Positions 8,653 to 63,534 of a DNA stretch of 64,000 bases are shown here, piece by piece. A program made the position numbers and the translations under genes. Source of the stretch: Acidobacteriota bacterium (GTDB lineage: Bacteria; Acidobacteriota; Vicinamibacteria; Marinacidobacterales; Marinacidobacteraceae). Where the stretch lies: NCBI GenBank assembly GCA_022828085.1, contig JAJEIY010000046.1, positions 556 to 64,555 on the forward strand, given 5' to 3'. Under the pieces are notes generated by a model. The model ran no database searches, had not been told where the DNA came from, and saw only the letters and a list, made by a program, of their open reading frames with translations. Every line of letters begins with the position of its first letter. Positions within the stretch are counted from its first letter, which is position 1.

Positions 8653-11600
8653 GACACTTCCTTCTCGCGCGGTCCGTCCACCGGAAGCTCCACGACCAGC
8701 AGCAGGCCGGTCCGGCGGTCGGCGCGGGCGCGGGCGATGACTTTCCCGCCGTGCGCCTCGGTGAAGCGCCGGGCGTTCGCGAGCCCGAGCCCGGACCCCC
8801 GGGTCCTGGTGGAGAATGCCGCGTCGAAGATCCGCTCGCGGAGGCCTTTCGGGACGCCGGGGCCGTTGTCCTCCACTTCGATCCGGATCCATCGGCCGTG
8901 GCGAACGGGGAGCACCCGCACCGAGACCTCCGCCTCCTCCGGTGGAATCTCCGGGAAGTCGAGGGTCGCCTCGAGCGCGTTCTGCAGGAGGTTCTCGACG
9001 ATCCGCGCCACGATCTCGGGATCGACCCGCGCCACCGGGGTCGGTGCGCCCTGGAAGCGGACCCGGGGCCGTGCATGGGGTCGCCGATGCGGGCCGACGG
9101 TGTCCTCGACCAGCTTCGTCACGTCGGTTTCCTGGAGCCGAAGCGGGGCTCCGAGGGCGGAAAACTCCGACGAAATGCGCCGCAGGCGCTCGACCTGATC
9201 GAGGATTTCCGAGACCCCTTCGTCCACCGCCGCCTGCGGATCCCGGCCGCGGGGCTCCCGGAGCACCCGTCGGATGTAGTCCGCCGCGAGTCCGATCGGA
9301 GCGAGGGCGTTCTTGATGTCGTGGGCGACGCGTCTCGCCAGGTCGGCCGCGGCTTCCTCGCGCATCTGCCGGCGGACGTCGGGAATCCGCCGCACCAGCC
9401 GTTCCACGCTGGCCGCGAGCAGGCGTAGCTCGGTCAGCGTGCCGTGCACGGGAACCCGGGCCTGAAGATCGCCGTCGGCGATCCGGCCGGTCGCGCGCGC
9501 CAGGCCCCGGACCGGTGCAGCCAGGCGGCGCGCGACCAGCGCGGGCAGCACGATGGCGAAGATCAGCGCCAGCGACCCGCTACCCAGAATGAGAGTCCGC
9601 TGGATGGCCCGGACGCTCTCGAGGCGGGCGGCCTCGTCCGCCGGCAACGGAACCGCGAGAAGCAGGGGACCGTGCAGCCGGGCGGGGGTGTCCAGGTGGA
9701 TCCAGACGATCCGATACCGGAGCGAGCCGGCGTCCTGGATGCTCAGGAAGGGATCGGGGGAGGTGGAGGGCAGGATCGCCGCGGGTGGGGGGCGCGGCGG
9801 GAGGAGCCCCGTCTGCGCCAGTTCGGGACGGCTGACCGCGACCAGCTCCCCGCCGTTGTAGAGCGCGGCATCCGTATCGAGCTGGTCCGCCGCCTGGGCG
9901 AGCCGCAGGGCGAGTTCGTCCCGCGGAATCAGCGGATCGAGGGCCGCGAGTTCCTGCGCCACGCGCCGCACGGAGAACGATCGGGAGATGGCCGCCCGGT
10001 CGCTGGCGGACTCGAGCAGGACGCCCAGACGCTGCTGCGCGAAGATCGCGACGCCCAGAATGGCGATGAGGACGGCGGCGGCCAGCGCTTCCGTCAACTG
10101 CATCTGGAAACTCCGTCTCCGAAGACGGCCCTCCCGATGCGGGAAGAGGAGGCGGGCGCGCGCGGCGACGGCCACCAGCAAGGCGATCAGGGCGGCCAGG
10201 AAACCCCAGCCGAGCAGTGCGCCGGCGTGGTCGGCGAGTCCCGTCCGCCGCCAGGAGATCACGAACGGCTCGCCATGCACCAGGACGCCCACCTCCACCG
10301 GCCCTTCGTCACGTTCCACGGGAAGGGAGGCCCGGTGGCTGAGCCGGAGGCCTCTACCGCGAAACACGGCGGGGGCGGCGTCTCCGCGGAGCAGAAAGTG
10401 ATCTCCGATCCCCGCCGCCCGGGGCAGGAAGGGAATCTCCGACGTGCGGTCGGCAACCCGCAGGGTCACGCCTGCCCCGGAGGGGAATTGGCGTTCGGTT
10501 TCGAGAACCGCCTCGATGCCGGACGCCGCCGCGCACTCGGGAATGGGACTCCAGCGAGGGGGTGAGGGAGCGGAGGACGGTGGATCGGGCCGGCGCGGCA
10601 GACCCACGCCGAACCGGGAGCGCCCACCACCCGGTCCCCGGACCTCCAGGGCGCTCGCAACCGTCAAACGGGGGAGCCCGGTCGAAAGCCACAGCCGGTA
10701 GGCGCTGTCCGGACGAAGGCGCGCCAGGGAAGCGGCTTCACTGTCGAGCGTGCGCGTCGCCTCCTCCAGCGCGTGGCACACGGCGAAGCGATGCCGGAGC
10801 GCCTGGACCGGCGCCGCATCCAGTGCATAGCGCTGGCGGACGCTGTCCTCGTGCCATGCCATCGCCGGGTAGAGAAGGACCGGAGGCACCGCGAAGAGCA
10901 GGAAGGCCACGAGGAAAGAGAAACCCGGTTCATGGGCGAGCAGCGGTTGCCGGAGGTGCCGCAGGGACAGCCGTCCGCGGCGCCAGAAGGCCACTACCGC
11001 GCCGGCCAGCAGGGGAAGCCCGGCGAACAGGAGGGAACCTCCGGGCAGAAACGCGGCCGAAACGGCAACGACCGCGGCGGCGGCCACCAGCACCGGCACT
11101 TCCGGCCGGAGGAGGCTCTGGAGGACGAGGAGGAGTCCCGCGAGTACGAGAAGAAGGGCCGCCCAACCGAGGACTTCCGGCCAGCGGGTGTGGAGATCCC
11201 AGGTTGGGGTCAGCGGCGCGCCGCCCGAAAACCCGGCACTCTGGACGAGCGCGGCGGCCACGACCGCCGCCCCGCCGGCGCCGAGGCCGCGCAGCAGGGC
11301 GTGGATCGCTCCGGGCGTCCTGCTGCCGGAGCCGGGCCGGAGACGGATGGCGGCGATGCGCGCCGAAACCAGCACGGCCGCCGCGGTCACGACCGCCATG
11401 AGCGGTGAGTCGCCCAGCACCGGCAGGAGGGGCGTGTCCGCGAGGAAAGCCGGAAGCGCGGCGCCGGGACCCGACGGGAGGGTTCCGAGCAGCGCGGACA
11501 GAGCGAATCGCAGCGTCCAGATCGCCACCAGCGTGCCGAGGTCGCCGAAGCGCCGGAGATAGGGGAGAGCGACGAGGATTCCGAGCAGGAGAGTCAGGGT

Positions 11601-49167: not shown

Positions 49168-50049
49168 ATGCGCACCGGGGGGACCGTGGTCCTGCTCCTG
49201 CTGGGCCTCGGGACGCTCGCAGGTTGCGGTGGCGGCGAGGAAGCTCCCGCGCCCGTCGAAGAACCGGAGCCGGTCGAGGAGGCCCCTCCCGCCCCGGCGC
49301 CGGAACCGGCCCGCCCCGCCCCGCCGCCGGCTCCGCCGCCGCCGACCACGGGCGCTCTCCAGGTGGAGGGAACCGAAGGGGCCAGCGTGTCGCTCGGCGG
49401 CCGGGTGCTCGGGACCGTGCCGGGCGCCTGGGAGGAGCTGGAGGCGGGGGAGTATCCGATTCGAGTCGAGAAGGAGGGTTTCCATCCCCTGGAGGTCAAC
49501 ATCACCATCCGGGGAGGCCGGACGCGATCGCTGGCCGCGGATCTCATCGAAATGCTGGGATCCATCACCGTGGAAAGCGACGTGGCTGGGGCGAACGTCT
49601 TCCTGAACAGGAACTTCAAGGGAAACACGCCGGTGACCATCGTGGATCTGCAACCCGGCGAGTACAACCTGACGGTGTCGGTGGAGGGACACGACGTGGT
49701 CTCCCGGAAGGTCGCTGTGGGCCGGCGAGTCGTTCCGGTCCGGGTGGAGTTCGGCGACCTGGAGGCCACGCTGGACGTGCGGGTCGCTGTCGTCCACAAG
49801 CACCGCTTCGGATCGTGTGAGGGGACGCTCGTCGCCACGACGGAAGGGTTCGACTACCGGACGGATCACAAGGACGCCTTCCAACTGTCGTTCGGAGAGA
49901 CGGAACGTTTCGAGATCGACTATCTCGAGAACAATCTGCGACTCAAGGTGCGCGGGGGGCGTACCTACAACTTCGAGTCGCCTTCCGAGGATCTGGACTC
50001 GCTGTTCGTGTTTCACCGGGACGTCACCGCGTTTCGGGAGCAGCGGTAG
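49168..50049 (+). CDS. PEGA-domain lipoprotein
   Basis: Lipobox LLGLGTLAGCGG, a Pro/Ala-rich linker and three PEGA-like repeats (GEYPIRVEKEG, GEYNLTVSVEGHD). Confidence 0.6.
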   Translation: MRTGGTVVLLLLGLGTLAGCGGGEEAPAPVEEPEPVEEAPPAPAPEPARPAPPPAPPPPTTGALQVEGTEGASVSLGGRVLGTVPGAWEELEAGEYPIRVEKEGFHPLEVNITIRGGRTRSLAADLIEMLGSITVESDVAGANVFLNRNFKGNTPVTIVDLQPGEYNLTVSVEGHDVVSRKVAVGRRVVPVRVEFGDLEATLDVRVAVVHKHRFGSCEGTLVATTEGFDYRTDHKDAFQLSFGETERFEIDYLENNLRLKVRGGRTYNFESPSEDLDSLFVFHRDVTAFREQR

Positions 50050-50221
50050 GCGGCGCCGGTTTCTTGGTTCAGATCGGCTCTCGGACTGGTTCTTTACATA
50101 ATCATCCTTATCGGAAGCTCGCTCCGCACCTGCCGACGCCCGCGCGCGAAAGGACGCCCGGGCGCGGAATAGACGCGCACAGCGCTGGGCGGAGTCCCGC
50201 AGCACCCTGGTCATCACGGCA

Positions 50222-51553
50222 GTGATCCAGGACGAGGCGCGGCTCTCCCGCTGGGCCCAACTCGAATTCCCCGACGGAACGCCGGCGGAAGAGGCGCGTG
50301 CGCTCGTAGCCCTGATCCGGCGCGACGGCTGGCGCGTCCACAGGGGGGACGGCACCCGCCTGGTCATATCCGAGGTCCCCGCCAGCGACGATCCTCCCGC
50401 CGCACTGATGAAGGCGCTAAACGCCCCCGTGAATCCGGCGGGCCTCTCGGCCCTCGCGGAGGTGGTCGAGCAGGTTCGCGCCTGGGATTCGGGCTGGCAG
50501 GCGCGTTTCCCCGCCCGCCTGGAACGCTGGAACTTCAGCAAGGAGCAGCCTCCAGAATCGAGGTTGCTCGCCTTCCCCGGCCCCCAGGAGCCCGCCCCGG
50601 ACGAATTCCGGCCGGGCTACTTGCCGTTCAACGACGCGCCGACGCATCCGGAGGCGCCACCACTGCCTCCCGCACTTGCGGCGTTCGACTTCCTCGGTGG
50701 ACAGTCCATGCGCAGCGGACGCGGCGTGACCCACGAGGCCCGGCTCGTCGTTCACGTGCTCGGCAACCTGAGCCCGGCCGCACGCAAGAGCGGCGTCCTG
50801 ACTCCGCAGTACTTCTCCGCGGCCGAGATGGCGGCGGAATTGTGGGAGGAGATCCCCCGAGGGGGCCGGGCGATCCGGATGCTGCGCCGGGCGCTGGACC
50901 GCATGACGCGCCTCGAGGCCGGCCCCATCACACTTCCCGATGGATCCCTTGCCGCCCTGCGGCCCCTGATGATCGGCGCCATGCCTTACGGGCTCGACGG
51001 CTCGGTAGAGATCTTCGTCCGGCTCCCGCCAGACCCCGACGGGCGGGGCTTCCGGTACGACCGGCTGCGAGCCCGGCACTGGGCGCGGCGGGCGGCGCCG
51101 CACTGGCGGCTCTATTTCGCCGCCTGCTTCCTGCGCGACCGTTTCGCCATCGATGGACGGGGAATCGAGCTGACGATTCCCGAAGTGCAGCGCGGCCGCG
51201 GAGGGGTCATTCTCGACGCCGCCGGCAACCCCGTGTTCAGCAAAGGGCAGCCGGTCCTGGAGTGGCATCACCCGAAAGCGATCGCCACGGGGACGCGGCT
51301 CCCCAACCCCGCCGCTAGCCGCCTTCAGATCTATTCCCTCGCCGACCTTACCCGGGTTGCGTGCGGCCCTCCTCCGGACCATTTGAGCAAGGAGGGGCGC
51401 TACAAGCGCCGTGTGCGAACCGAGCAGGCGCTCACGGATCTCCAGGACGCGGGCGACCTGGAATTCGAACTCGCGGACGACCCGTGTGGCCGACGCCGCT
51501 TCCGGATCGCGGCCGTGGATCCTCGGCGCAGGCACCGCCGACTCATCGAGTAG
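50222..51553 (+). CDS. hypothetical protein; candidate iteron-binding replication initiator (assigned by position only)
   Basis: 443-aa ORF with coding-like GC3 and no family recognised by eye; ends 30 nt before six tandem iterons. Confidence 0.4.
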   Translation: MIQDEARLSRWAQLEFPDGTPAEEARALVALIRRDGWRVHRGDGTRLVISEVPASDDPPAALMKALNAPVNPAGLSALAEVVEQVRAWDSGWQARFPARLERWNFSKEQPPESRLLAFPGPQEPAPDEFRPGYLPFNDAPTHPEAPPLPPALAAFDFLGGQSMRSGRGVTHEARLVVHVLGNLSPAARKSGVLTPQYFSAAEMAAELWEEIPRGGRAIRMLRRALDRMTRLEAGPITLPDGSLAALRPLMIGAMPYGLDGSVEIFVRLPPDPDGRGFRYDRLRARHWARRAAPHWRLYFAACFLRDRFAIDGRGIELTIPEVQRGRGGVILDAAGNPVFSKGQPVLEWHHPKAIATGTRLPNPAASRLQIYSLADLTRVACGPPPDHLSKEGRYKRRVRTEQALTDLQDAGDLEFELADDPCGRRRFRIAAVDPRRRHRRLIE

Positions 51554-51585
51554 CCGAGTAGCCAACCCATCCCCGCAAGGGTTGT

Positions 51586-51709
51586 GTGTGTTTCCAGGGC
51601 GACCGGTGTGTTTCCAGGGCGACCGGTGTGTTTCCAGGGTCACCTGGTGTGTTTCCAGGGTCACCTGGTGTGTTTCCAGGGTCACCTGGTGTGTTTCCAG
51701 GGTCACCGG
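51586..51709. repeat. six tandem iterons: 2 x GTGTGTTTCCAGGGCGACCG (20 bp) + 4 x GTGTGTTTCCAGGGTCACC(T)G (21 bp)
   Basis: Direct tandem repeats read from the sequence (unit starts 51586, 51606, 51626, 51647, 51668, 51689). Confidence 0.85.
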
Positions 51710-51748
51710 CGTCTCGAAAACGCATGGCACTCTTGGCCTCGCGGATTT

Positions 51749-51808
51749 ACCCCAATTCTTCCCCAATTCCTTCCCAATTCCTCCCATATGGGGGAAGGGA
51801 ATTGGGGA
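51749..51808. repeat. three CCCAATTC direct repeats merging into an imperfect palindrome centred on CATATG (cccaattcctccCATATGggggaagggaattggg): origin/operator-like block
   Basis: Read from the sequence; locally AT-richer; adjacent to the iterons. Confidence 0.6.
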
Positions 51809-52081
51809 AGTGGACGTGCGACGAATTTCCACGCCACCAACACACGGAGCGACGGAGCCGACTTAGCGCGACTTCGTCGCGCGCCTCCGGTCGGGCTCCG
51901 CTTCGCGGCCCCTCCCTCTCCCGCCGCTCGCGCGGCGGGTCAACTACGAACGCGAAAACCGTTGCTGGACCGGCCCTGGGATGCCAGGAACATCACCAGA
52001 GCAGACCGGCGAATTCGCGCCGACGGCCCGGAGTGTGATAGATAACCGGCTCCGAACCCGAACCGGCTCCAAACCCGTGGC

Positions 52082-52109
52082 CACACACACACACACACAC
52101 ACACACACA
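52082..52109. repeat. (CA)14 dinucleotide microsatellite
   Basis: 28 nt of perfect CA repeats, 130 nt upstream of the primase-like gene. Confidence 0.9.
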
Positions 52110-52239
52110 GCAAGACCCGGACCAGGCCACGGCGTATATCCGGGCGCTTTATCCCGCTCCATCTGAACATCTCGCGCTAGTCGCGATCGACCGGGTCAAG
52201 GACCGCCACCCGGAACAGCGAATCCGACAGGCGCGAGCC

Positions 52240-52974
52240 GTGACCGCGCCGAAGTTCCAGGCGTGGCTTCGGGCTCTGAACGCCCAGGGCTACGACATCT
52301 TCGTGTCGATGAATCCCATCAACCCGGAGCGGCGACGCCGCGAGAAGCAGGACGTGGCGAAGGTGCGCCGGCTCCAGCTCGACCTGGACCGCAACGGCCC
52401 CGAGTCCCTGCATCGCGTGCTCGCCGACGTGCATGCGGGTTCCCTGCCCCGCCCCGCGGCTGTGGTCCGGAGCTCACGCCACAACTACCAGGTCATCTGG
52501 CACGCGGATCCGGACGTCTGGACCGCTCCGGAGGCCGAGGACACCATGCGCCGCCTGGCGGCCCGCTACGGGGGCGACTCCTCGGTCGCCGACGTCGCCC
52601 GCGTCATGCGTGTGCCGGGCTTCCGCAACAAGAAACCGGAGCGCGACGACGCGCCCGTGCAGTGGACCGACCACGCTGGCCGGCCGACGCGCCCGGATGC
52701 GTTCGCGCATCTCCCGAAGGTGGAGCATTCCCTGCAGCGCTCCCCCGGCACGGGACGTCAGATCGAGGGCCGCGACACCAGCCAGTCCGCCCGGGACTGG
52801 GCCTATGCCAAGGACCAGCTCCGCAAGGGCGTCCCCCAGGAGAAGGTCATCGCCGCGCTTGAGAAGCGCCGCGCCGGCGAGAAGCACGACCCCCGCTACT
52901 ACGCCGAGCGGACCACCCGCAAGGCATTCCTCGACATCCAGCGTCCGCGCGCGCGGGCGCTGCCATCCCGCTGA
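52240..52974 (+). CDS. RepB'-type DNA primase-like protein (plasmid primase family)
   Basis: Motifs LQLDLD (DxD), SSRHNYQVIWH and GGD..VADVARVMRVPGFRNKK resemble RSF1010 RepB'-like primase hallmarks. Confidence 0.5.
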   Translation: MTAPKFQAWLRALNAQGYDIFVSMNPINPERRRREKQDVAKVRRLQLDLDRNGPESLHRVLADVHAGSLPRPAAVVRSSRHNYQVIWHADPDVWTAPEAEDTMRRLAARYGGDSSVADVARVMRVPGFRNKKPERDDAPVQWTDHAGRPTRPDAFAHLPKVEHSLQRSPGTGRQIEGRDTSQSARDWAYAKDQLRKGVPQEKVIAALEKRRAGEKHDPRYYAERTTRKAFLDIQRPRARALPSR

Positions 52975-52995
52975 AACGCGAAAGGAGCAGCACAC

Positions 52996-53214
52996 ATGGG
53001 AATCAGAGAAATCGAGATCGAGGGCAAACCCGCCCTCAGCGTCGACACCGAGGAGGAGTTCGCTCAGGTCTTCGACCGCGGGCTGCCCATCGAGGCCCCG
53101 CGAGAGGTCGTCGACGCCTTCGGCATCCCCGGCGCCGACGAGAACGGCGACCCCCTCGACACCGACGAGCCTTCGGCTGAGTTTGACGACCTGGCTCTGG
53201 AGGACCAGCCCTAA
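52996..53214 (+). CDS. small highly acidic protein (72 aa; candidate DNA-mimic / anti-restriction protein)
   Basis: Strong RBS AAAGGAG 9 nt upstream. About 35% Asp+Glu (..DTEEEFAQVFD..DENGDPLDTDEPSAEFDDLALEDQP). Confidence 0.5.
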   Translation: MGIREIEIEGKPALSVDTEEEFAQVFDRGLPIEAPREVVDAFGIPGADENGDPLDTDEPSAEFDDLALEDQP

Positions 53215-53248
53215 CCGCGCGGAACCCCGCGCCGCATGAGTAACCAAC

Positions 53249-54334
53249 ATGGCCGAAGCCAAAGCCAACACTCGCGGCCGGGACCGCATCACCGAGTACC
53301 ACCAGCAGTTTGCCGCCGCGATCATCAAGCAGATCGAGGCCGGCACCGCCCCCTGGCAGCGCCCCTGGAAACCCGGCGAGCAGCTCCTTCCCCGTAACCC
53401 CTTCACGGGCAACCGATACACCGGCGGCAACGCCCTCGGCCTCGCGCTCGAGGGCGCGCAACGCGGCTTCGCCGACCATCGCTGGGCCACCTACCGCCAG
53501 ATCAAGGAAGCCGGCGGCCACGTCCGCAAGGGCGAACGCGGCGCACAGATCCTCTACTTCCAGAACCGGAAGCTGCTTGCCAAGAAGGACGACCAGGGCC
53601 GTCAAATGGTCGACTCCGACGGCCGCACCGTCTACGAACGCCCCGACAAACCGCGGCTCCTCGTCCGCGTCTACACCGTCTTCAACGCCGAGCAAGCCGA
53701 AGGACTCGACCTGCCCCCGCGCGACGCGACCGCGCCCGAGTGGCAACGCCACCAGGCGGCCGAAGCCGTGATCGAAACCTCCAACGTCCCGATCAAACAC
53801 GCACCCGGCAATCGCGCCTACTACAGCTCAAGAGCCGACCAGATCGTCCTCCCCGAGCGCCGCCAGTTCCCGTCCGCCGAGCACTACTACGCGACGGCTC
53901 TCCACGAGCTTTCACACGCGTCCGGACACAAGAGCCGGATGGACCGCGAGACCTTCCACAACGCCGTCAAATACCCCACGGGCGGCTTCGGCAGCGCGCC
54001 CTACGCCCGCGAAGAGCTCCGGGCGGAAATCGCCGCCATGATGACCGGCGAGCGCATCGGCATTGGCCACCACCCGCAGGACGGCCACTGCGGCAACAGC
54101 GCGGCGTACGTCGAGAGCTGGATCAAAGCCCTCAAAGACGACCCACGCGAGATCTACCGCGCGGCCGCCGAGGCCACCCGCATCTCCGACTTCCTCGTGA
54201 AGCCGGCCCGCGAGCGGATCCAGGAGATCGGCCGGGACGAGCCGTCCTCACCGGACGCCGCCGAGATGCGCGTTCCCGCGCTCACGCATCCGTCTCCCGC
54301 GCGGCAGCAGCCGGCCATGACGCCCCGACGATGA
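53249..54334 (+). CDS. ardC: ArdC-like antirestriction protein (N-terminal ssDNA-binding DUF1738 domain plus C-terminal zincin-like metalloprotease domain with an intact HExxH)
   Basis: ArdC-N motifs AGTAPWQRPW and RYTGGNALGLAL; C-domain YYATALHELSHASGH. Confidence 0.7.
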   Translation: MAEAKANTRGRDRITEYHQQFAAAIIKQIEAGTAPWQRPWKPGEQLLPRNPFTGNRYTGGNALGLALEGAQRGFADHRWATYRQIKEAGGHVRKGERGAQILYFQNRKLLAKKDDQGRQMVDSDGRTVYERPDKPRLLVRVYTVFNAEQAEGLDLPPRDATAPEWQRHQAAEAVIETSNVPIKHAPGNRAYYSSRADQIVLPERRQFPSAEHYYATALHELSHASGHKSRMDRETFHNAVKYPTGGFGSAPYAREELRAEIAAMMTGERIGIGHHPQDGHCGNSAAYVESWIKALKDDPREIYRAAAEATRISDFLVKPARERIQEIGRDEPSSPDAAEMRVPALTHPSPARQQPAMTPRR

Positions 54335-54395
54335 GCCTCCCATCTCATGCCCAGCCTCCGCGCGATCCCGAAACCCCCCACCAGGAGTAAGAATC

Positions 54396-55532
54396 ATGGC
54401 TGAAGCCACTCCTGCGTGGCGAAGGTTCCTGAGGAACCTGCGCTGGGGCAACCCTGGGAAAAACCGGGCCTGGGACGAGGGGGGAGTCAAGGTCGCCGGG
54501 CCCCCGGCAAGACCACCGACCAAAAAAAACGCCGCCCGCCCGCACCGCCTGGCCGGTAGAAGCCGAGAGTCCCACCTCCACGGCCCGCTGGGCGATTACT
54601 ACCGGATGTTTGCCGAGACCGCCATCCGGCAGATGGAGGAAGGCACCGCGCTCTGGCACTGCCCGTCAGAGGACGGGGAGCGGGTTCTGCCCCGGAACGC
54701 CGTCACTCACCGCGCCTACACCGCCGGCAACGCCATCTACCTGGCCGTCCGCGGCCAGGACCGCGGCTTCCGCGACAACCGCTGGATGACCCTGCAGCAG
54801 ATCAAGGAGGCCGGCGCCCTGCCGCCGGACGGACCCGGCGAACGGATCCTCGTCCGCCACGACCGCAAGGGCCAGAAGCCCGTCTGCCGCACCTCCACCG
54901 TCTACAACGTCGAGCAGGTCCGCGGCCTCAACCTCGAGCGGCGCATGCCGCGTCCGGCGGACTGGCTCGCGGAACGCGGCGCCGACGCTGTCATCGCCGC
55001 TTCCGCCGTCGAGATCAAGCACACCGACGAGCCCTATAGCTGGCCCTACTACCGCGGGAACCGCAACCAGATCGTCCTGCCCAACTGGAAGAAAACCGCG
55101 AGCAGCAACCACTACTACAGCACCGCGCTTCGGAACATAGCCTGCGCATCCACACACGAAGATCGAACGGACCGCTGGCCACCTCCCCGCGAGCTGCTGC
55201 GCGCGGACATCGCCACCATCACGGTCTGCGACCGGTTGGGGCTCGGCTACCAGCCGCTTGCCGAGAATCCGCAGGATATTCGCGACCCGACCGGGGCTCC
55301 CGACTACACGGAGGCCTGGATCAAGGCCCTCAAGGAGGACCCGCGCGAGATGCACCGCGCGGCATCCGAGGGCCACCGCATCGCGGAGCACCTCATCCAG
55401 CCGGCCCGCGCGCAGTTACGGAACATCGTCCGCAAGGCACACGCCGCGCTCGATGCGGAGATGCTCGAAGGCACATCCCCCGCCCGTCCGTCTCCCGTGC
55501 GCCCGCAGCCGGCCATGACGCCCGGACGATGA
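54396..55532 (+). CDS. ArdC-like paralog 2 (HExxH replaced by RNIAC; N-terminus divergent, possible frameshift near an A8 run at 54524-54531)
   Basis: Core FAETAIRQMEEGTALW...YTAGNAIYLAV is homologous to copy 1. The C-domain reads YYSTALRNIACASTHEDR and the C-terminus ..PQPAMTPGR parallels copy 1. Confidence 0.6.
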   Translation: MAEATPAWRRFLRNLRWGNPGKNRAWDEGGVKVAGPPARPPTKKNAARPHRLAGRSRESHLHGPLGDYYRMFAETAIRQMEEGTALWHCPSEDGERVLPRNAVTHRAYTAGNAIYLAVRGQDRGFRDNRWMTLQQIKEAGALPPDGPGERILVRHDRKGQKPVCRTSTVYNVEQVRGLNLERRMPRPADWLAERGADAVIAASAVEIKHTDEPYSWPYYRGNRNQIVLPNWKKTASSNHYYSTALRNIACASTHEDRTDRWPPPRELLRADIATITVCDRLGLGYQPLAENPQDIRDPTGAPDYTEAWIKALKEDPREMHRAASEGHRIAEHLIQPARAQLRNIVRKAHAALDAEMLEGTSPARPSPVRPQPAMTPGR

Positions 55533-55593
55533 GCCTCTCATCCCGTGCGCGGACCCCGCGCGATCCCGAAACCCCCAACCGGGAGTAACCAAC

Positions 55594-56586
55594 ATGGCCG
55601 AAGCCAAAACCTCTCCCTCGAAGCCCGCGATCGACTCGCCCAGCCGCTACTACGGGAAGTTCGCCGAGACCGCCATCCGGCAGATGGAGGAAGGCACCGC
55701 GCCTTGGCAGCGCGCCGCGAAGGCCGGCGAGCGGGTCCTGCCCCGAAACGCCATCACCCACCGCGCCTACACCGGCGGCAACGCCGTCTACCTGCCCGTC
55801 CGCGGCCAGGACCGCGGCTTCACCGACAACCGCTGGATCACCATGCAGCAGATCAAGGAGGCCGGCGCCCAGCCGCCGAAGGGGCCCGGCGAACGCATCC
55901 TCGTCCGCCAGGAACGCGACGGGCAGAAGCCCGTCTGGCGCACCTCCATCGTCTACAACGTCGAGCAGGTCCGCGGCCTCAAGCTCGACCGGCGCCCGCC
56001 GCGGCCGGAATGGCAGGCGCACCGCGGCGCCGACGCCGTCATCGCCGCCTCCGCCGTCGAGATCAAGCACACCGCCGGCGAACACAACTACTACAACAAG
56101 GAGCACGACCAGGTCGTCCTCCCCGAGCGGAAGCAGTTCCGGAGTCCGGAGCACTACTACAGCACCGCGCTGCGGAACATGGCCCACGCCTCCGGACACG
56201 AGAGCCGGATGGACCGCGAGACCTTCAAGCAGACCCACAGCGAGGGTCTGGACGGCGCGGCGCACGGCCGCGAGAAGCTCCGTGTCGAGATCGCCACCAT
56301 GACGGCGGGCGACCGGCTCGGCGTCGGCTACCAGCCGCAGCACGATCCCAGCTACAAGGAGCTCTGGATCAAGGCCCTCAAGGAGGACCCGCGCGAGATG
56401 CACCGCGCAGCCTCCGAGGGCCACCGCATCGCGCGGAACCTCATCAAGCCCGCCCGCGAACAGCTGCGGGGCATCGCCCGCGAAGCGCGCGCCGCGCGCG
56501 ATGCGGAGACGCCCGAACGCGCTCCCCAGGCCCCTCCGAAAGCCATGCCCCAGCGCCAGGTGCCGGCGATGTCCCCCGCGCGCTGA
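55594..56586 (+). CDS. ArdC-like paralog 3 (HExxH replaced by RNMAH)
   Basis: MAEAK.. start and a -35 to -1 upstream region conserved with copies 1 and 2; YYSTALRNMAHASGHESRMDRETF. Confidence 0.65.
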   Translation: MAEAKTSPSKPAIDSPSRYYGKFAETAIRQMEEGTAPWQRAAKAGERVLPRNAITHRAYTGGNAVYLPVRGQDRGFTDNRWITMQQIKEAGAQPPKGPGERILVRQERDGQKPVWRTSIVYNVEQVRGLKLDRRPPRPEWQAHRGADAVIAASAVEIKHTAGEHNYYNKEHDQVVLPERKQFRSPEHYYSTALRNMAHASGHESRMDRETFKQTHSEGLDGAAHGREKLRVEIATMTAGDRLGVGYQPQHDPSYKELWIKALKEDPREMHRAASEGHRIARNLIKPAREQLRGIAREARAARDAETPERAPQAPPKAMPQRQVPAMSPAR

Positions 56587-56595
56587 CCCCCGCCC

Positions 56596-57498
56596 ATGAG
56601 TCGCCGTCCGGAGCCCCGCCATCCCACCAGGCCGGCCGCCCCCCGCGGCCGCGAGCCTTGGCGCACCGGACACCGCCGGGAACACGGTTCCCGGGACGGC
56701 GCTCCCCGCGGCCGGGACCGGCGCGAAGGCGCGCTCGTGGACATCAGCGCCCATCGAGTCGCCGCCTACCAGGACATCGCGGCCGTCCACTTCGACGGCC
56801 ACCCCTACGCCGCGCGCGCCGGCATCAACCGCCTCAAGCGCGAGGGCCTCGTGACCGAGCATCAGGCGGACGGGCCGAACGGCGGCTCCTTCACTGTCCT
56901 GGCGGCGACCAGGAAGGGAGCCGCGGAGGCGCAGGCCGCCGCGGAGAGCCGCGGCGGCGCCGACGGACAGCACTTCTGGAGCGGGATCGGACGCCGCGAG
57001 GACCTCGCCCACGACGTCGCCGTCTACCGCGCCGTGCTTGCCGCCCGGGAAGAGCTCGCCGCCAAGGGAGTCGAGGCGCTCCGGGTCCGGCTCGACGCGG
57101 AGCTGCGCCGCATCGTGGTCCGGCGGAGCGAGCGGGCCCGGGCCCGGGCGGGGCGGAAGGCGGCCGACGCCGAACGGCGGCGCGCGGCCGCCGAGCTCGG
57201 ACTTCCCCACTCCCCGGAGGGGGCGGTGTCGTTCCCGGACGCGCAGCTCGAATACACCCTCGAGGAGGATGCCGGGGGACAGACGTTCGGCCGGGTGAAC
57301 ATCGAGGTCACCACCGAGCACTACCGCGAAGGCGCGATCGCGGCGAAGGCCGCGGCGGGCTTCGCGCTCCACGGCTCGAACGGCAAGGCCGGCCGCCTCA
57401 TCGCGAGAACCATCGCGAAAGCCTTTCGGGAGGCGGCAAGACCACAGCGCAGCGGCGGGGGGAGGGACCCGACACCGCGGGAGCTGATGGAGATCTGA
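56596..57498 (+). CDS. hypothetical protein (Arg/Ala-rich; start uncertain)
   Basis: ORF with coding-like bias between the ArdC triplet and the T4SS genes; no family recognised. Confidence 0.35.
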   Translation: MSRRPEPRHPTRPAAPRGREPWRTGHRREHGSRDGAPRGRDRREGALVDISAHRVAAYQDIAAVHFDGHPYAARAGINRLKREGLVTEHQADGPNGGSFTVLAATRKGAAEAQAAAESRGGADGQHFWSGIGRREDLAHDVAVYRAVLAAREELAAKGVEALRVRLDAELRRIVVRRSERARARAGRKAADAERRRAAAELGLPHSPEGAVSFPDAQLEYTLEEDAGGQTFGRVNIEVTTEHYREGAIAAKAAAGFALHGSNGKAGRLIARTIAKAFREAARPQRSGGGRDPTPRELMEI

Positions 57499-57499
57499 G

Positions 57500-57817
57500 A
57501 TGCATCCCTGGAAAGTGAGCGTCGGCGTCACCGTCGCGGTCACGGCGCTGGCCGTCTTCTTCGGGGCCTCCCACTTCGACTACCTCGCACCCTACCGCCG
57601 GGTCATCGTCACCGAGTACTGGTGGCCGATCACCCTCTACGCGGGCGCGGCCTTCCTCACCGTCGTCATTGCCGTCGCCGGGATCCTGCGGAGCCTGGGG
57701 CTCTACGACATCGGCCGGAAGGTCGACCTCGCGGAGCGCTCGGTTCGCCGCGGCGACGGCGATCCCGACCTTGCCCGCCGCCTTGCCGAACAGGAGCAGG
57801 GCGACTTCACCGACTAA
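57500..57817 (+). CDS. small two-TM membrane protein, hypothetical
   Basis: Two hydrophobic helices (VGVTVAVTALAVFF.., ITLYAGAAFLTVVIAVAGIL); immediately upstream of trbC. Confidence 0.4.
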   Translation: MHPWKVSVGVTVAVTALAVFFGASHFDYLAPYRRVIVTEYWWPITLYAGAAFLTVVIAVAGILRSLGLYDIGRKVDLAERSVRRGDGDPDLARRLAEQEQGDFTD

Positions 57818-57838
57818 CCCAACCCAGGAGGCTCTTCC

Positions 57839-58135
57839 ATGAAGCGCACCACATCCCATATCCGTGCGGCCATCATCCTGGCTGCCGCCGCTGTGCTCGT
57901 GCCGAGCGCCGCGTTCGCCACGATGGCAGGCACCAGCCCCTGGCTGAACGCCGTCTCGGTCCTCGAGACCGCCTTCACCGGCCCGATCGCCCGCGGCCTG
58001 TCCCTGATCGCCATCGTCATCGGCGGGCTGATGTTCGCCTTCGGCGAGGGCGGCTCCAAGAAGGCCCTGGCCGGGATCATCTTCGGCCTCGGCATGGCGA
58101 TGGGCGCCGTGAACTTCCTCGGCTGGCTCTTCTGA
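57839..58135 (+). CDS. trbC: TrbC/VirB2-family conjugative pilin
   Basis: Signal peptide plus two hydrophobic segments and a Gly-rich C-terminus (IAIVIGGLMFAFGEGG...IIFGLGMAMGAVNFLGWLF); RBS GGAGG. Confidence 0.7.
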   Translation: MKRTTSHIRAAIILAAAAVLVPSAAFATMAGTSPWLNAVSVLETAFTGPIARGLSLIAIVIGGLMFAFGEGGSKKALAGIIFGLGMAMGAVNFLGWLF

Positions 58136-58203
58136 CCCGTCCATACGGTATTGATCGTATGACGCCATACGGTATTGACCGTGCATACGGTCGGGCTTGA
58201 ATC

Positions 58204-58494
58204 GTGACCGGCAAGCGCGCCTGGCACGGCCACCCCGCCCTGAGCCGGCCGCTCACCATCATGGGGGTCGAGAGACGGTGGTTCCTGCTGTCTCTCACCC
58301 TCGGCCTGGCGATGTGGAACGCCATCAACTCGCTCGTCACGGGCGGCCTGATCTTCGGCACCCTCTACGCCGCCGGCTGGCTCGCCTGGCGCCAGGACCC
58401 GAACATGCTGTCCATCGTCGCGGCGAGCGCCACGAGCCGCGTCCGCTACGACGCCGGCAAGCCGAGCCTGTGGCACGTCGACCTCCTCGAATGA
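58204..58494 (+). CDS. VirB3/TrbD-family T4SS protein
   Basis: ~96 aa, two TM segments, overlapping the virB4 start (ATGA) in the typical virB3-virB4 arrangement. Confidence 0.6.
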   Translation: MTGKRAWHGHPALSRPLTIMGVERRWFLLSLTLGLAMWNAINSLVTGGLIFGTLYAAGWLAWRQDPNMLSIVAASATSRVRYDAGKPSLWHVDLLE

Positions 58495-60926
58495 ACCTCC
58501 AGGCCGAGCAGCAGGACTTTGCCGCGGCGGGCGCGCTCGCCGACGAGCTGCCCTACTGGGGCTGGCTGAAGGAACATCCCTTCTGCCTCACCCGCGCCGG
58601 CGAGTTCCTGGCGGCCGCCGAACTGGAGCCGGCCGTCCTGGACGGCCGCACTCCCGAGCAGCTGGACCAGGTGCTGAACCGCTGGCAGCGCCTGCTCTCC
58701 TCCCTCGACACCAGCACCCGGCTCTACTTCTACCTGCTCCGTCGCCCCGGCGTCCTGGGCGAGGTCACCGGCCTCGACGGCGTCGCCGCCCTCTCCCAGC
58801 GGAACCGGCGCGACTTCCTCCTGTCCCGGATCCACGACCTCCGGACGTTCGTCGTCTGGAGCCACAACCCCGGCCTCGAGCGGGCGGGTCGCTCCGGCCC
58901 CCGGGGCAACCACTGGCTGGTCGAGTACGCGCGCAACTGGCTCCGGGCGCGCCGTAACCCCCACGAGTCCGTCTTTCTCCTCGCCGAGGTGCGCCAGGCC
59001 GCCACCCGCTTCCGCCAGCTCGTCGAGGCCTCCGCCGCCCTCGCCAACGAGGTCACCCCGATCCGCCTCCTGCCGGCGGACGAGGCGACTCCCTTCCTGA
59101 GCGAACTCGTCAACCGTCCCGGCCTCGAGTGGCACGGCGACGCCGCGGCCAGCGCCCTCAACTGGCGGCTGCCGCTCTCCGAACTCGAAGCCGAGCGCCA
59201 ACACCTCCGGCTCGACGGCGAGCCCGTCATCCTCTACTCCCTCCTCTCGCCGCCGGCCACCGCCCGCGCCAACCTCCTCTACGAACTCGCCCGCATGGAG
59301 GCGCGGTTCACCCTGTCTCTCGAGTGGCGTCCCTACGCCCTCGAGGCCGCCCGGCGCAAGATCCGGAGCGCGCAGCGCCACTACTTCTCGAAGCGCTACT
59401 CCATGGCGGCGCACGTGCAGGACACCGAGGGCACGGCTTCGGCCATGGTCGATGCCGCCGCCGACGCCGAGGCCGACCGCCTCGGCGGCGCCCTCGTCGA
59501 GCTCGAGGCCGACGGCGTCGGCTACGGCGACGTATCGCTAACGATCGCGCTGCACGGTCCGCTCGCGGAAACGGAGCGCCAGGACGCTGAACTGCGCCGG
59601 ATCTTCTCCGGCTGCGACGCCAAGCTCATCCGCGAGGGCTACGGCCAGCTCGCCAGCTGGTTCGCGCGCATGCCGGCCATGCCGCGCAAGCGGCAGATCC
59701 GTTCCGTCTTCGCGAGCGCGGGCGTCGCCTCCTGCCTGGCGCCACTCTTCGGGCCCCCGCGCGGCCACCGGGTCAGCAAGCACCTCTCCCGGCCGGCTTT
59801 GGCCACGTTCGAGACTCCCTGGAAGACCTCGTATCACTACGACCTCTTCGCGGGGGCCGATGTCGGGCACACGCTCATCCTCGGCGCCACCGGCGCGGGC
59901 AAGAGCTTCACGCTCAACTTCCTGCTCGTCCAGGCCCTCCAGTACCAGCCGCGGGTCCTCATCCTGGACCTCGGCGGCTCCTACCGGTGGCTCACCCAGT
60001 TCCTGGGCGGCGGCTACCTCCAACTCGCCCCCGAGCGCGCCGACGGCGCGCTCGCCCTCAAGCCCTTCTCCCTGCCCTCCGGCGAGCGGACCTTCCAGTT
60101 CCTCACCGGCTGGATCACCCGCCTTCTCCGCATCGGCGGCTACGAACTCACCGGACGGGATCCGTCCGAGATCCGGAGCCGCGTCGAGGACCTCTACGCC
60201 TTCTCCGAGGCCCAGCGCTCCCTGTCCGCGTTCGTCTCCTCCCTGCCGAAGGGGATGTGGCCGGCCATGAGCCGCTGGCACGGCAACGGCGCCTGGGCCG
60301 CTTACTTCGACAACCCGGGCGCCGACGAACTGCAGCTCCAGGACTGGCAGGTCATCGACCTCGCCGGCGCCGCAGAGCACGAGGACCTCTGCGAGGCCGC
60401 GCTGTTCTACCTCCTCGAGCGCATGCGCCTCGCCCTCGAGAACCCGGACGAGGCGGCCCGCGTCAAGCTGATGGTCGTCGACGAGGCCTGGCGGTACCTC
60501 CGGGACCCCGCCATCCTCGCCTACCTCGCGGAGGCGGCGAAGACCTGGCGGAAGCGCAACGCCGCCCTCGTCCTCGCCACCCAGTCCGCGATCGACGTCA
60601 CCGCCAGCCCGGCGGCGAAGGGGCTCCTCGAGTCCCTCCCGACGAAGCTCTTCCTGGCCAACCCCGACCTCCCCGACCAGGTCGGCGAGATCTTCCGCCT
60701 CAACGAGACGGAGATGGCCACCATCCGCCAGCTCGTCCCCAAGCAGGAGCTCTACCTGCGCCGGTCCCAGTCCGCCGGCGTCCTCCGCCTCCACGTCGAC
60801 CCCGAGAGCTACTGGCTCTACACGTCCTCTCCCATCGACTCCGAGCGGCGCGCCGAGGCGGTCGCGGCGCACGGCCTCACCGGCGGCCTCGCCGCCCTCG
60901 CCAGACAAACGGAGCTCTCCACATGA
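58491..60926 (+). CDS. VirB4/TrbE T4SS ATPase
   Basis: Walker A GATGAGKSF, Walker B LMVVDEAW and CagE/TrbE-like domains. Internal ATG at 58491; the tool ORF start at 58197 is over-extended. Confidence 0.85.
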   Translation: MNLQAEQQDFAAAGALADELPYWGWLKEHPFCLTRAGEFLAAAELEPAVLDGRTPEQLDQVLNRWQRLLSSLDTSTRLYFYLLRRPGVLGEVTGLDGVAALSQRNRRDFLLSRIHDLRTFVVWSHNPGLERAGRSGPRGNHWLVEYARNWLRARRNPHESVFLLAEVRQAATRFRQLVEASAALANEVTPIRLLPADEATPFLSELVNRPGLEWHGDAAASALNWRLPLSELEAERQHLRLDGEPVILYSLLSPPATARANLLYELARMEARFTLSLEWRPYALEAARRKIRSAQRHYFSKRYSMAAHVQDTEGTASAMVDAAADAEADRLGGALVELEADGVGYGDVSLTIALHGPLAETERQDAELRRIFSGCDAKLIREGYGQLASWFARMPAMPRKRQIRSVFASAGVASCLAPLFGPPRGHRVSKHLSRPALATFETPWKTSYHYDLFAGADVGHTLILGATGAGKSFTLNFLLVQALQYQPRVLILDLGGSYRWLTQFLGGGYLQLAPERADGALALKPFSLPSGERTFQFLTGWITRLLRIGGYELTGRDPSEIRSRVEDLYAFSEAQRSLSAFVSSLPKGMWPAMSRWHGNGAWAAYFDNPGADELQLQDWQVIDLAGAAEHEDLCEAALFYLLERMRLALENPDEAARVKLMVVDEAWRYLRDPAILAYLAEAAKTWRKRNAALVLATQSAIDVTASPAAKGLLESLPTKLFLANPDLPDQVGEIFRLNETEMATIRQLVPKQELYLRRSQSAGVLRLHVDPESYWLYTSSPIDSERRAEAVAAHGLTGGLAALARQTELST

Positions 60927-62109: not shown

Positions 62110-63534
62110 ATGACCATTTGGAAACGCATCGCCGCCAGCCCCGCCGGCGCACCCCGCCGGCTCTCCCCGCTCGCCCTCGGCGCGATCCTCCTGGCAGAGG
62201 GCTACGCCTCGCTGGGGGCCGAGATCCTGGCGCTGCGGCGCATCGCCCCCTGGGCCGGGACCTCGGTGGACGTCACCACCGTGCTCCTCGCCGCCTACCT
62301 GGCCGCCCTCGCCGGCGGCTACCGCCGCGGCGGGCGCCTCGCCCGTGACGGCGACCCCCGCCCGCGGCTCGCGTTCCGCCTGACGCTCGCCGCGGCCCTC
62401 GCCGCCTTCTGGCTGTCCGAGCCCGGCATCCTGCTGGCCTTCGGCCTGCCGCTCCCCCCGCTGGTCCAGGCGGCCTTCTACGCGGTCGTGGGCATCGCTC
62501 CCGTCGGCTGGCTCCTCGCGGAGTGCGTTCTGCTGGCCCACGCCTGCGCGCCCACCGGCGAACGCTCGGCGACCGCCGGCCGCGTCTTCGCCCTCTCCAC
62601 CGTCGGGAACGTCGCGGGGGCGCTCGCCACGACGTTCCTGCTGTTGCGCTTTCTCGGTACCGCCGCCGCCGCACTCGTCCTCTGCGCAGGCCTGCTGGGC
62701 GCGGCCCTGCTGGCCTTCCGGCGCAGCGTCCCGCTGGCCGCCTGCGCGGCCGTTGCCGTCTTCCTCGCCGTCGACCTCTGGACCGAGGCGTCCGTCTACG
62801 TCGAGCGCAACGCCTACGCCGACTATCGCATTGCGGAGCGCGACGGCGGGCGGGTCCTCGAACTCAACCAGCAATGGGCCTCCCGCCATGACGCCGCCGG
62901 CAAGGGTTGGCCCTATGTCGAGCTCCTCGAGGCGACCCTGTGCGAGGCCGGCGAGACGCGTGTGCTGGTGCTCGGCGCCGGCGGGATGACCATCGGCCAG
63001 GGCGCCCCCTGCGCGCTCGAGCCGGTCTTCCTCGACCTCGACCCGGACCTGGAGCGCATCGCCTCCGACTTCCTGGACGTCCCCGAAGGCGCCGCGGGGA
63101 CCTTCCATGCCCGCGACGCGCGCGCCTTCCTCCGGGACGACCCCGGAGGCTGGGACGCGATCGTCGCCGATGCCTTCACCAACTGGCGCTCCGTTCCCCG
63201 CCACCTTCTCACCGTCGAGTTCTACGGCCTGGCCCGCTCCCGCCTCCGTCCCGGCGGCTCGCTCTACGTCAACCACGTCGCCCACGGCGATCCGGCCGGC
63301 GAGCGGCTGTTCCTCACCCGCGTCGAACGCACCCTCCGCAGCGTGTTCGCCGGCTGCGCCATGCGCGAGACCGGTCTGCCGCCCGGCACCGGCTGGCACG
63401 CCGCCGCCACCATCCCCCGCGGCCTCCTCTTCCGCTGCCTCCGGTCGGATCTCGACGGGGACCGCGCCGTCTACTCCGACGCTTTGCCGCGGGCTGACCT
63501 CGACCGCGGCCTCCGGCTGGGAGCCCCCGACTGA
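62110..63534 (+). CDS. polytopic membrane protein fused to a spermidine-synthase-like (class I SAM-MTase fold) domain
   Basis: ~7 N-terminal TM helices, then VLVLGAGGMTIGQG..DLDPD..F..WDAIVADAF..YGLARSRLRPGGSLYVNHV, typical of the SpeE-like fold. Confidence 0.6.
   Translation: MTIWKRIAASPAGAPRRLSPLALGAILLAEGYASLGAEILALRRIAPWAGTSVDVTTVLLAAYLAALAGGYRRGGRLARDGDPRPRLAFRLTLAAALAAFWLSEPGILLAFGLPLPPLVQAAFYAVVGIAPVGWLLAECVLLAHACAPTGERSATAGRVFALSTVGNVAGALATTFLLLRFLGTAAAALVLCAGLLGAALLAFRRSVPLAACAAVAVFLAVDLWTEASVYVERNAYADYRIAERDGGRVLELNQQWASRHDAAGKGWPYVELLEATLCEAGETRVLVLGAGGMTIGQGAPCALEPVFLDLDPDLERIASDFLDVPEGAAGTFHARDARAFLRDDPGGWDAIVADAFTNWRSVPRHLLTVEFYGLARSRLRPGGSLYVNHVAHGDPAGERLFLTRVERTLRSVFAGCAMRETGLPPGTGWHAAATIPRGLLFRCLRSDLDGDRAVYSDALPRADLDRGLRLGAPD

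Follow-up and report, generated by a model that had tools for sequence, protein, structure and literature searches.

We analyzed a 64,000-nt stretch of Acidobacteriota DNA (hereafter the window; G+C content of about 70%), in which a block at positions 52240–56586 encodes a RepB'-type primase, a 72-aa acidic protein and three consecutive homologues of the anti-restriction protein ArdC (Table 1). The block lies in the left part (50.2–64 kb of the window) of a conjugative element with a VirB-type type IV secretion system (T4SS) that is apparently integrated in an Acidobacteriota chromosome. This was concluded from the chromosomal-type genes found before 50 kb (a MiaB-like radical-SAM enzyme, ParA/ParB, DsbD_N, a flavin reductase and a PEGA protein) and from the element/chromosome junction at about 50 kb, which recurs on a 1.55-Mb contig. 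All five genome matches are metagenome-assembled genomes (MAGs) of Acidobacteria/Acidobacteriota. Our results showed that one of the ArdC homologues (copy 1) keeps an intact metalloprotease site while another (copy 3) is a maintained pseudo-metalloprotease, and that the pair is ancestral to this family of elements.

A preliminary description of this DNA had proposed three consecutive ArdC-like genes, which lie at 53249–56586. Each of them indeed encodes both the ArdcN domain (PF08401) and the MPTase-PolyVal domain (PF18818) above the Pfam gathering cut-offs of 22.6 and 27.5 bits, respectively, with 109.6 and 130.7 bits for copy 1, 58.8 and 46.9 bits for copy 2, and 66.2 and 97.2 bits for copy 3. 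In R388 ArdC, the metal is bound by H201, H205 and E229, E202 serves as catalytic base and H205 is oriented by E228 (PMC7213743). We mapped these positions by alignment to the PDB sequences of R388 ArdC and in a family alignment. The full gluzincin site (H201, E202, H205, E229) is found in copy 1 alone, which also retains Y255 of R388 ArdC; the same four positions read R, N, C and L in copy 2 and R, N, H and K in copy 3, and the E228 position is E in all three copies. The corresponding motifs are LHELSHASGH, LRNIACASTH and LRNMAHASGH, so that HExxH is present in one copy only (HELSH, against RNIAC and RNMAH), as had been noticed. The loss of the catalytic His-Glu in copies 2 and 3, also reported before, is accompanied by further changes: E229 is replaced with L in copy 2 and with K in copy 3, and copy 2 additionally carries H205C. 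Three of the four residues for metal binding and catalysis are thus lost in copy 3 relative to R388 ArdC (H201R, E202N and E229K). Because they lack HExxH together with a Glu as third ligand, copies 2 and 3 were classed, from their sequence, as predicted ArdC-like pseudo-peptidases.

The N-terminal domain for binding single-stranded DNA (ssDNA), which copies 2 and 3 had been said to keep, is present in outline but has a beta3-beta4 hairpin shorter by about 25 residues than the long one of copy 1; the ArdcN match of both copies spans only positions 2–86 of the 123 of the Pfam profile. The AlphaFold2 (AF2) model of copy 3 has a mean predicted local distance difference test score (pLDDT) of 87.6 and a predicted template modelling score (pTM) of 0.84, with residues 306–330 disordered. 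Its top PDB matches are the ArdC structures 6I89 and 6SNA (E 4e-14, target-normalised TM score 0.77–0.81), and identity to R388 ArdC at the sequence level is 26–28%.

The preliminary description had also read the three genes as a recent tandem duplication, which our comparison did not support. Copy 1 is 45% identical to copy 2 and 52% identical to copy 3 (three-way MAFFT alignment), copies 2 and 3 are 63–68% identical, and the synonymous divergence (dS) among the three copies is 0.32–0.65. At the DNA level, the gene bodies of copies 1 and 3 are about 65–72% identical. The pair formed by copies 1 and 3 is ancestral; the add-on is the middle copy alone, and with a dS of about 0.3 this copy is old as well. 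The conserved leaders put forward for all three genes are partly there: cgcgatcccgaaaccccc is found upstream of copies 2 and 3 only, while copy 1 has just gagtaaccaacATGGCCGAAGCCAAA in common with copy 3 and copy 2 has gagtaagaatcATGGCTGAAGCCACT. The C-termini of the three copies are alike, as described (..PAMTPRR, ..PAMTPGR and ..PAMSPAR); they had been taken as a sign of duplication, and the same type of tail is also found at the end of the unrelated primase.

We compared 12 related loci (L001–L010, L013 and L014), among them one from a MAG with the label Gammaproteobacteria and one on a marine scaffold of TARA. All 12 present the same gene order: a RepB primase, a 63–73-aa acidic protein, an ArdC with HExxH (about 360 aa), an ArdC of the Rx type (329–476 aa), a protein of about 300 aa and a protein of 105 aa. 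The T4SS part follows in the order TrbC, VirB3, VirB4, CagX, TrbI, x, TrbL and VirB8. In L004, about 1.2 kb (8819–10001) separates the HExxH copy from the Rx copy. A homologue search with copy 3 returned 84 proteins, and R occupies the H201 position in all the full-length ones that are at least 49% identical to it (P0001–P0032, P0042 and P0044; P0026 and the fragment P0059 are without the active-site region). In these Rx homologues, the E202 position holds N, H, T or Q and the E229 position mostly K, H, Q, L, M or R. The homologues of copy 3 that keep HExxH are all at most 47% identical. When 1.84 billion cluster representatives were searched exhaustively without a profile, the ArdC family numbered 11,744 members at E ≤ 1e-3; the Rx clade corresponds to only three 50%-identity clusters, and at least 140 of the 147 next ArdC representatives carry the canonical motif. 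HExxH has also been lost independently elsewhere in the ArdC family, where YEMSR and REFFK are found (P0067 and P0077–P0082, from Bilophila wadsworthia and others), and other representatives carry the variants HQLAH, HAKAH and RELAH. Among the relatives of copy 3, the 498-aa Rx protein P0004 has an additional N-terminal Pfam domain (PF19663), and P0023, P0028 and P0029 have N-terminal extensions of 100–200 aa.

In a neighbour-joining tree, the Rx copies are monophyletic (100/100 bootstraps) and the Rx and HExxH copies of the element family together form one clade against other ArdCs (100/100). The ArdC(HExxH)/ArdC(Rx) pair was already present in the ancestor of this element family, and is hence older than the divergence of these conjugative elements as a whole. 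Compared to its orthologues, copy 3 shows a ratio of nonsynonymous to synonymous substitution rates (dN/dS) of 0.10–0.41 and copy 1 one of 0.30–0.43, absolute values that are inflated because high GC and codon bias lower dS. As more than 30 orthologues carry the R-x change, dN/dS is in this range and the fold is confidently ArdC-like, copy 3 is a maintained pseudo-metalloprotease and not a pseudogene. The pseudogene outcome, by which the preliminary description had proposed to judge its own reading, therefore does not apply to copy 3. Its claim that the motif-less copies are maintained holds for copy 3, while the dN/dS of copy 2 is much higher (see below).

ArdC homologues are ordinary on conjugative elements. 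A tblastn search of PLSDB with copy 3 matched 2856 plasmids at 2993 ArdC-like places, so that several copies per plasmid are uncommon (about 137 extra places over the 2856 ArdC-bearing plasmids). All these matches are below 60% identity, which leaves the Rx clade without a member among the sequenced plasmids of PLSDB. Megablast of 50000–58200 against PLSDB detected no near-identical plasmid DNA. One match (H8) was considered as an R388-like context; it proved to be an IncP-type polyvalent protein of 1105 aa, not R388, and was not used.

Copy 2 is an optional cassette of the Rx type that has been gained, lost or swapped among otherwise near-identical elements. This was seen by comparing the middle slot in elements whose flanking genes are 93–100% identical to those of the window. 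The slot is empty in L001, holds the 378-aa RNIAC allele in the window and in L002, a 429-aa RNMAH allele (65% identical) in L003, and in L006 a 359-aa version of the L003 allele from which about 70 residues, including the whole active-site helix, are deleted. The three alleles form one clade (100/100 bootstraps) and have in common a basic N-terminal extension (MAEA.. W.R.LR..R.GNP), located in the frame with a high G+C content at third codon positions (GC3). The 429-aa allele (L003 8650–9939) shows an apparent partial internal repeat of the first ArdC-N helix, with FRNLADEAIQKMEAHTL before YYRRFADTAIRQMEAGTA. The middle copies have a dN/dS of 0.72–0.86, and the alleles of the window and L002 differ by four nonsynonymous and no synonymous changes; the middle copy evolves nearly neutrally or under diversifying selection. 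Since dS among the middle alleles (0.29–0.31) far exceeds that of the flanking ArdC genes (0.03–0.06), the alleles are old and were exchanged rather than mutated in place.

Each ArdC-ArdC junction comprises the last 45 nt or so and the stop codon of the upstream gene, followed by a 61-nt spacer that contains AGGAG and by the MAEA start of the next gene. The resulting repeats of about 125 nt flank the middle copy and are nearly identical in all these elements; judging by their sequence, they would supply the homology for unequal crossing-over. Folding of the two 61-nt spacers as ssDNA gave discordant results (z = +0.9 and -3.1) and was not taken as a conserved structure. An additional Rx copy of independent origin, placed on a long branch of the tree, is found in L005, and expansion therefore occurred at least twice.

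The N-terminal segment of copy 2 contains the A8 homopolymer reported earlier (54522–54529), which is the sole A/T run of at least 6 or G/C run of at least 7 within 50–58.2 kb. Its proposed role as a frameshift switch was not borne out. The L002 orthologue, 99% identical at the protein level, has AAAAATAA (A5TA2) in place of A8, a substitution that changes K to N and leaves both frames intact. No indel variation was found at A8 between the window and L002, the one close relative with this allele. We rejected phase variation at this tract, as the difference is a substitution and not a change in length.

The C-terminus is P-x-R in all the ArdC copies and also in the primase, a protein unrelated to them. 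Across the elements examined, primases end in ..AVPAR, ..AMPAR, ..TQPSR or ..ATPPR and ArdCs in ..LSPSR, ..MTPGR or ..ISPAR. Among 381 high-GC3 open reading frames of the window and seven loci, 25 terminate with P[GSAR]R and all 25 are primases or ArdCs. A C-terminal Arg is present in 113 of 120 primase homologues (48–98% identical), with P-x-R in 88, and in 94 of the 147 cluster representatives of ArdC, among which long polyvalent proteins are frequent and the ending ..GPSR is common. High GC raises the background of C-terminal Arg, to 17% among the other genes of the window (6/36), none of which ends in P-x-R. The tail is conserved at the protein level, because its codons differ between the primase and ArdC genes, and it is disordered in the copy 3 model (last 25 residues). 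To judge from this shared motif, the tail may be a recognition signal, most likely for export through the T4SS and its coupling protein. Export is the most natural candidate since the TraC1 and Sog primases are transferred, transfer of ArdC was proposed long ago, and known VirB/D4 substrates use Arg-containing C-termini.

The presence of a RepB'-like primase and of a small acidic protein beside the ArdC genes, as first described, was also confirmed. The N-terminal catalytic domain of the primase (PF16793) scores 82 bits against a cut-off of 24.3, while its C-terminal helical domain (PF22448) remains below the cut-off (16.9 against 26.1 bits). The match to RSF1010 RepB' (PDB 3H25, E 7.7e-4) gives an alignment too weak to place catalytic residues. 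Constraint within the block is strongest on the primase, whose dN/dS is 0.05–0.17. The 72-aa protein contains 22 D/E against 4 K/R, and the related elements all carry in this slot a protein of 63–73 aa with a conserved N-terminal part of about 45 residues and an acidic tail. Isoelectric points computed with Biopython came out at 4.05 in every case, the lower limit of the algorithm, and were disregarded. Its AF2 model (pLDDT 69 overall, above 80 for residues 1–40) shows a beta-beta-alpha-alpha N-terminal unit followed by a disordered acidic tail. Searches of Pfam, NCBIfam and PHROG gave no match, no more than 8 close relatives came up in a word-based homologue search, and Foldseek against the PDB returned nothing at E ≤ 0.001 (best E 0.61). 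The suggestion that it mimics DNA agrees with its charge and is unsupported beyond that, as no family or fold relation to a known mimic of the ArdA/Ocr kind was found in these searches.

Table 1. Features of the element in the window, in order of position
Feature	Position	Strand	Evidence or remark
orf443, 443 aa, first gene of the element	50222–51553	+	77–95% identity and same position in L001–L006
Iteron-like direct repeats, six of 20–21 bp, core TGTTTCCAGGG	51584–51712	+	Count of exact cores differs among relatives
CCCAATTC, three times; inverted repeat/hairpin with 18-nt arms	51751–51810		Conserved in L001–L006
RepB'-type primase, 244 aa, ends ...RARALPSR	52240–52974	+	Pfam RepB_primase, E 6.6e-23
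Acidic protein, 72 aa	52996–53214	+	Same slot in all related elements
ArdC copy 1, 361 aa, metal site H, E, H, E, E	53249–54334	+	Pfam; PDB 6I89, E 2.8e-40
Spacer, 61 nt, with AGGAG ribosome-binding site, in junction repeat of about 125 nt (54289–54408)	54335–54395	+	
ArdC copy 2, 378 aa, metal positions R, N, C, E, L; basic N-terminal extension	54396–55532	+	Pfam
Second spacer, 61 nt, in junction repeat 55487–55606	55533–55593	+	
ArdC copy 3, 330 aa, pseudo-metalloprotease, metal positions R, N, H, E, K	55594–56586	+	Pfam, fold model
Conserved protein, 300 aa	56596–57498	+	Replic_Relax (Pfam) 25.2 bits against cut-off 25.3; present in all elements
Conserved protein, 105 aa	57500–57817	+	Conserved in relatives
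Start of T4SS operon	57839–60926	+	TrbC/VirB2 57839–58135, VirB3 58204–58494, VirB4 58491–60926; Pfam

All genes from 52240 to 60926 lie on the + strand, with the ArdC block immediately 5' of the T4SS genes. Intergenic gaps measure 1–61 nt from the primase gene to virB2, and a non-coding stretch of 686 nt precedes the primase gene. No terminator-like site was found on the + strand 3' of the primase start, those present being inside orf443 or the iteron repeats, and no sigma-70 promoter was found. The T4SS genes of the window are those of VirB2, VirB3 and VirB4; VirB9, VirB10, VirB6 and VirB8 are visible in relatives. The 300-aa protein downstream of copy 3 (dN/dS of about 0.18), with a Replic_Relax score just under the cut-off, may be of the relaxosome or replication-relaxation type. 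Neither a relaxase nor a recognisable origin of transfer (oriT) was detected in the window or in the 10-kb flanks of the relatives. The window contains no integrase and no tRNA as integration site; in L010 and L014, tyrosine integrases are found upstream of the module. Upstream cargo in L013 (1–4127), L014 (696–4836) and L010 (3639–5006) combines tyrosine integrases, one of them fused to HNH, with defence-type genes, namely an Eco57I/MmeI-like methylase-nuclease beside an SNF2/PLD protein, and AbiEii. Inside the T4SS operon, between CagX/VirB9 and TrbI/VirB10 (62110–63534; 16517–17941 in L006), a protein of 474 aa is encoded whose C-terminal part resembles spermidine synthase (NCBIfam MFS_SpdSyn, E 1.8e-29); it is missing from that slot in L007, L009, L013 and L014. 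Used as a query to follow the element downstream towards a relaxase or oriT, this protein led only to a contig of 2.7 kb. L006 and L009 lie about 425 kb apart on one 1.55-Mb contig, so that two elements of the family are present in one genome; one has an RN-type and the other an RH-type pseudo-ArdC.

Taken together, the block is probably, though far from certainly, a conserved establishment operon that combines a RepB'-type primase, an acidic protein, a canonical ArdC and a pseudo-metalloprotease ArdC, and whose products are tail-marked for export. Such an operon would supply early functions for the transferred strand. The primase would start synthesis of the complementary strand, and the ArdC proteins would bind the incoming ssDNA and blunt the restriction of the recipient, by analogy with R388 ArdC. 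Rx copies would act as non-catalytic binders while copy 1 would keep an additional proteolytic task, and the primase and the ArdC proteins would travel with the DNA by means of the P-x-R tail. A non-catalytic role, already suggested by the preliminary description, is credible: the E229A variant of R388 ArdC is still fully active against HsdRMS (PMC7213743), and a protease-dead paralogue could therefore plausibly do the anti-restriction job. The preliminary description had likened the block to the anti-defence leading region of conjugative plasmids, which is here a candidate reading. The genes are co-oriented and include, with the ArdC homologues, a known anti-defence family; Pfam, NCBIfam and PHROG searches found no further known anti-defence family in the block.

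Several points weigh against this view. Anti-restriction activity is extrapolated here from R388 ArdC at the low identity given above, and the shorter hairpin of copies 2 and 3 may alter ssDNA binding. The HExxH copies were recovered as a clade in only 20 of 100 bootstraps, which does not fix the branching order of the duplication, and the inflation of the absolute dN/dS values bears on the estimate of constraint. For export, the evidence is motif sharing only, with the coupling protein and the relaxase of the element unseen and with an Arg background raised by the GC content. In addition, R388 ArdC has its effect when it is produced in the recipient, with no requirement for export.

A bolder form of the establishment operon appears possible but doubtful. 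Here, the P-x-R tail would be a previously unrecognised T4SS signal by which the primase, the active ArdC and the dead ArdC binders are all injected. The acidic protein would be a VirE1-like chaperone or a DNA mimic and would prevent the exported set from binding DNA while still in the donor, and the swappable middle cassette would serve as a decoy that diversifies to match the defences of recipients.

We consider it rather unlikely that the Rx paralogue is instead a regulatory partner of copy 1, forming a heteromer that gates or targets its protease or competing with it for substrate. This model would account for the constant adjacency and co-transcription of the HExxH and Rx copies, which are strictly paired one to one in 12/12 elements. 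The Rx copy moreover retains the whole metallopeptidase-domain fold and the conserved C-terminal helices, and the Arg and Lys that replace two metal ligands could fill the empty site and hold the shape of the pocket. On the other hand, R388 works with a single ArdC, and the small number of extra ArdC-like places on plasmids indicates that the family as a whole does not depend on pairing.

Another explanation draws on the non-coding stretch that precedes the primase gene and takes the block for a module of DNA processing and replication establishment instead of anti-defence. The TGTTTCCAGGG repeats look like iterons or like sites for a Rep or accessory protein; exact cores number 6 in the window, 9 in L006 (5972–6150), 5 in L005 (6694–6790) and 1 in each of L001–L003. 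The CCCAATTC hairpin sits in the least GC-rich part of the region (ssDNA folding z = -2.4 to -2.6) and, from its structure, could be an origin, a single-strand initiation site (ssi) or an oriT element. A (CA)14 microsatellite (52082–52109), of 10–14 units in relatives, is also located 5' of the primase gene. Together with orf443 and the RepB' primase, the iteron-like repeats and the hairpin would form an IncQ-like origin, while the role of the ArdC-like proteins would be to cover the transferred strand and to assist priming in the manner of VirE2 or single-stranded-DNA-binding proteins, and the acidic protein would serve as a VirE1-like chaperone. The high constraint on the primase is in line with this, as are the fusion of ArdC-N to the primase in RP4 TraC1 and the invariable position of the acidic protein between the primase gene and the first ardC. 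VirE1 is itself an acidic chaperone of about 65 aa encoded just upstream of VirE2, an ssDNA-binding T4SS substrate. Against it, orf443 has no detectable Rep fold or family (Pfam, NCBIfam and PHROG searches gave no match), AlpA takes its place in L007, L009 and L013, and the acidic protein has no PDB match. Strand coating and anti-restriction are also compatible for ArdC. We therefore regard this explanation as improbable.

Finally, that the motif-less copies are decaying, functionless duplicates is very improbable. The dN/dS of the middle copies, the lack of synonymous differences between the window and L002 alleles, the empty slot in L001 and the deletion in L006 would suit its milder form, restricted to the middle copy, but copy 3 has its intact orthologues in at least two phyla-level bins under constraint and with a confident fold, and the middle copies keep open frames of 359–429 aa with the conserved basic extension, an in-frame GC3 of 0.85 and the P-x-R tail.

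The element family thus offers a natural separation of function, with an ArdC whose metal site is dead kept by selection next to an intact one that is likewise selected. The two activities of ArdC can be assayed in separate genes, and the only ArdC tested so far needs no protease for anti-restriction. The variable third cassette and its recombination-ready junction repeats show how ArdC arrays diversify. The P-x-R tail provides a mutable handle on the export of ArdC- and TraC-like proteins with DNA and on the signal read by the coupling protein. With this family, ArdC biology comes to include uncultured Acidobacteriota and marine bacteria, in which, to our knowledge, nothing is known of conjugation.

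The preliminary description had not recognised the composition of the block as described before. In part it has a precedent, as active or inactive peptidase domains beside ArdC-N have been mentioned in passing (PMC6222260). Our literature searches did not find described an active and a dead ArdC conserved as an obligatory pair, a third ArdC cassette that is swappable and has dedicated junction repeats, or a P-x-R tail common to ArdC and primase.

Among known systems, ArdC of the IncW plasmids R388/pSa (6I89, 6SNA) has the same two domains, an ssDNA-binding ArdC-N and a gluzincin-type metallopeptidase, and is likewise carried by a conjugative element. Unlike R388, the present family has two or three tandem copies, of which a conserved second one carries R, N and K at H201, E202 and E229. 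Relative to R388 ArdC, copy 1 has a longer beta3-beta4 hairpin, and copies 2 and 3 have a shorter one. The P-x-R tail, the Acidobacteriota host and the apparent chromosomal integration of the element are further differences. RP4 TraC1 and other polyvalent proteins also tie ArdC-N and MPTase modules to a primase function and to T4SS genes, and ArdC-N polyvalent proteins have been proposed to travel with DNA (Iyer 2017, PMC5512222; Krishnan 2018, PMC6222260). Here, by contrast, the primase is of the RepB' and not the Toprim type, primase and ArdC modules are separate genes, and inactivation is confined to a dedicated, conserved paralogue beside the active one.

The anti-defence islands of leading regions (Samuel et al., 2024, PMC11541004) resemble the block in that small co-oriented genes, with an anti-restriction homologue among them, are clustered on a conjugative element; ArdC is not named in the main text of that study. 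The block differs from these islands in abutting the T4SS operon and in having no other recognised anti-defence gene. With VirE1/VirE2 of Agrobacterium, the element shares a gene for a small acidic protein just upstream of genes for known or predicted ssDNA-binding proteins, a T4SS and Arg-containing C-termini on the known or putative substrates. No similarity of sequence or fold was detected, so that this remains an analogy. The N-terminal catalytic domain of the primase belongs to the same Pfam family as that of RSF1010 RepB' (3H20/3H25); it is a distant relative, with the C-terminal domain under the cut-off, and is associated with a T4SS element instead of an IncQ replicon.

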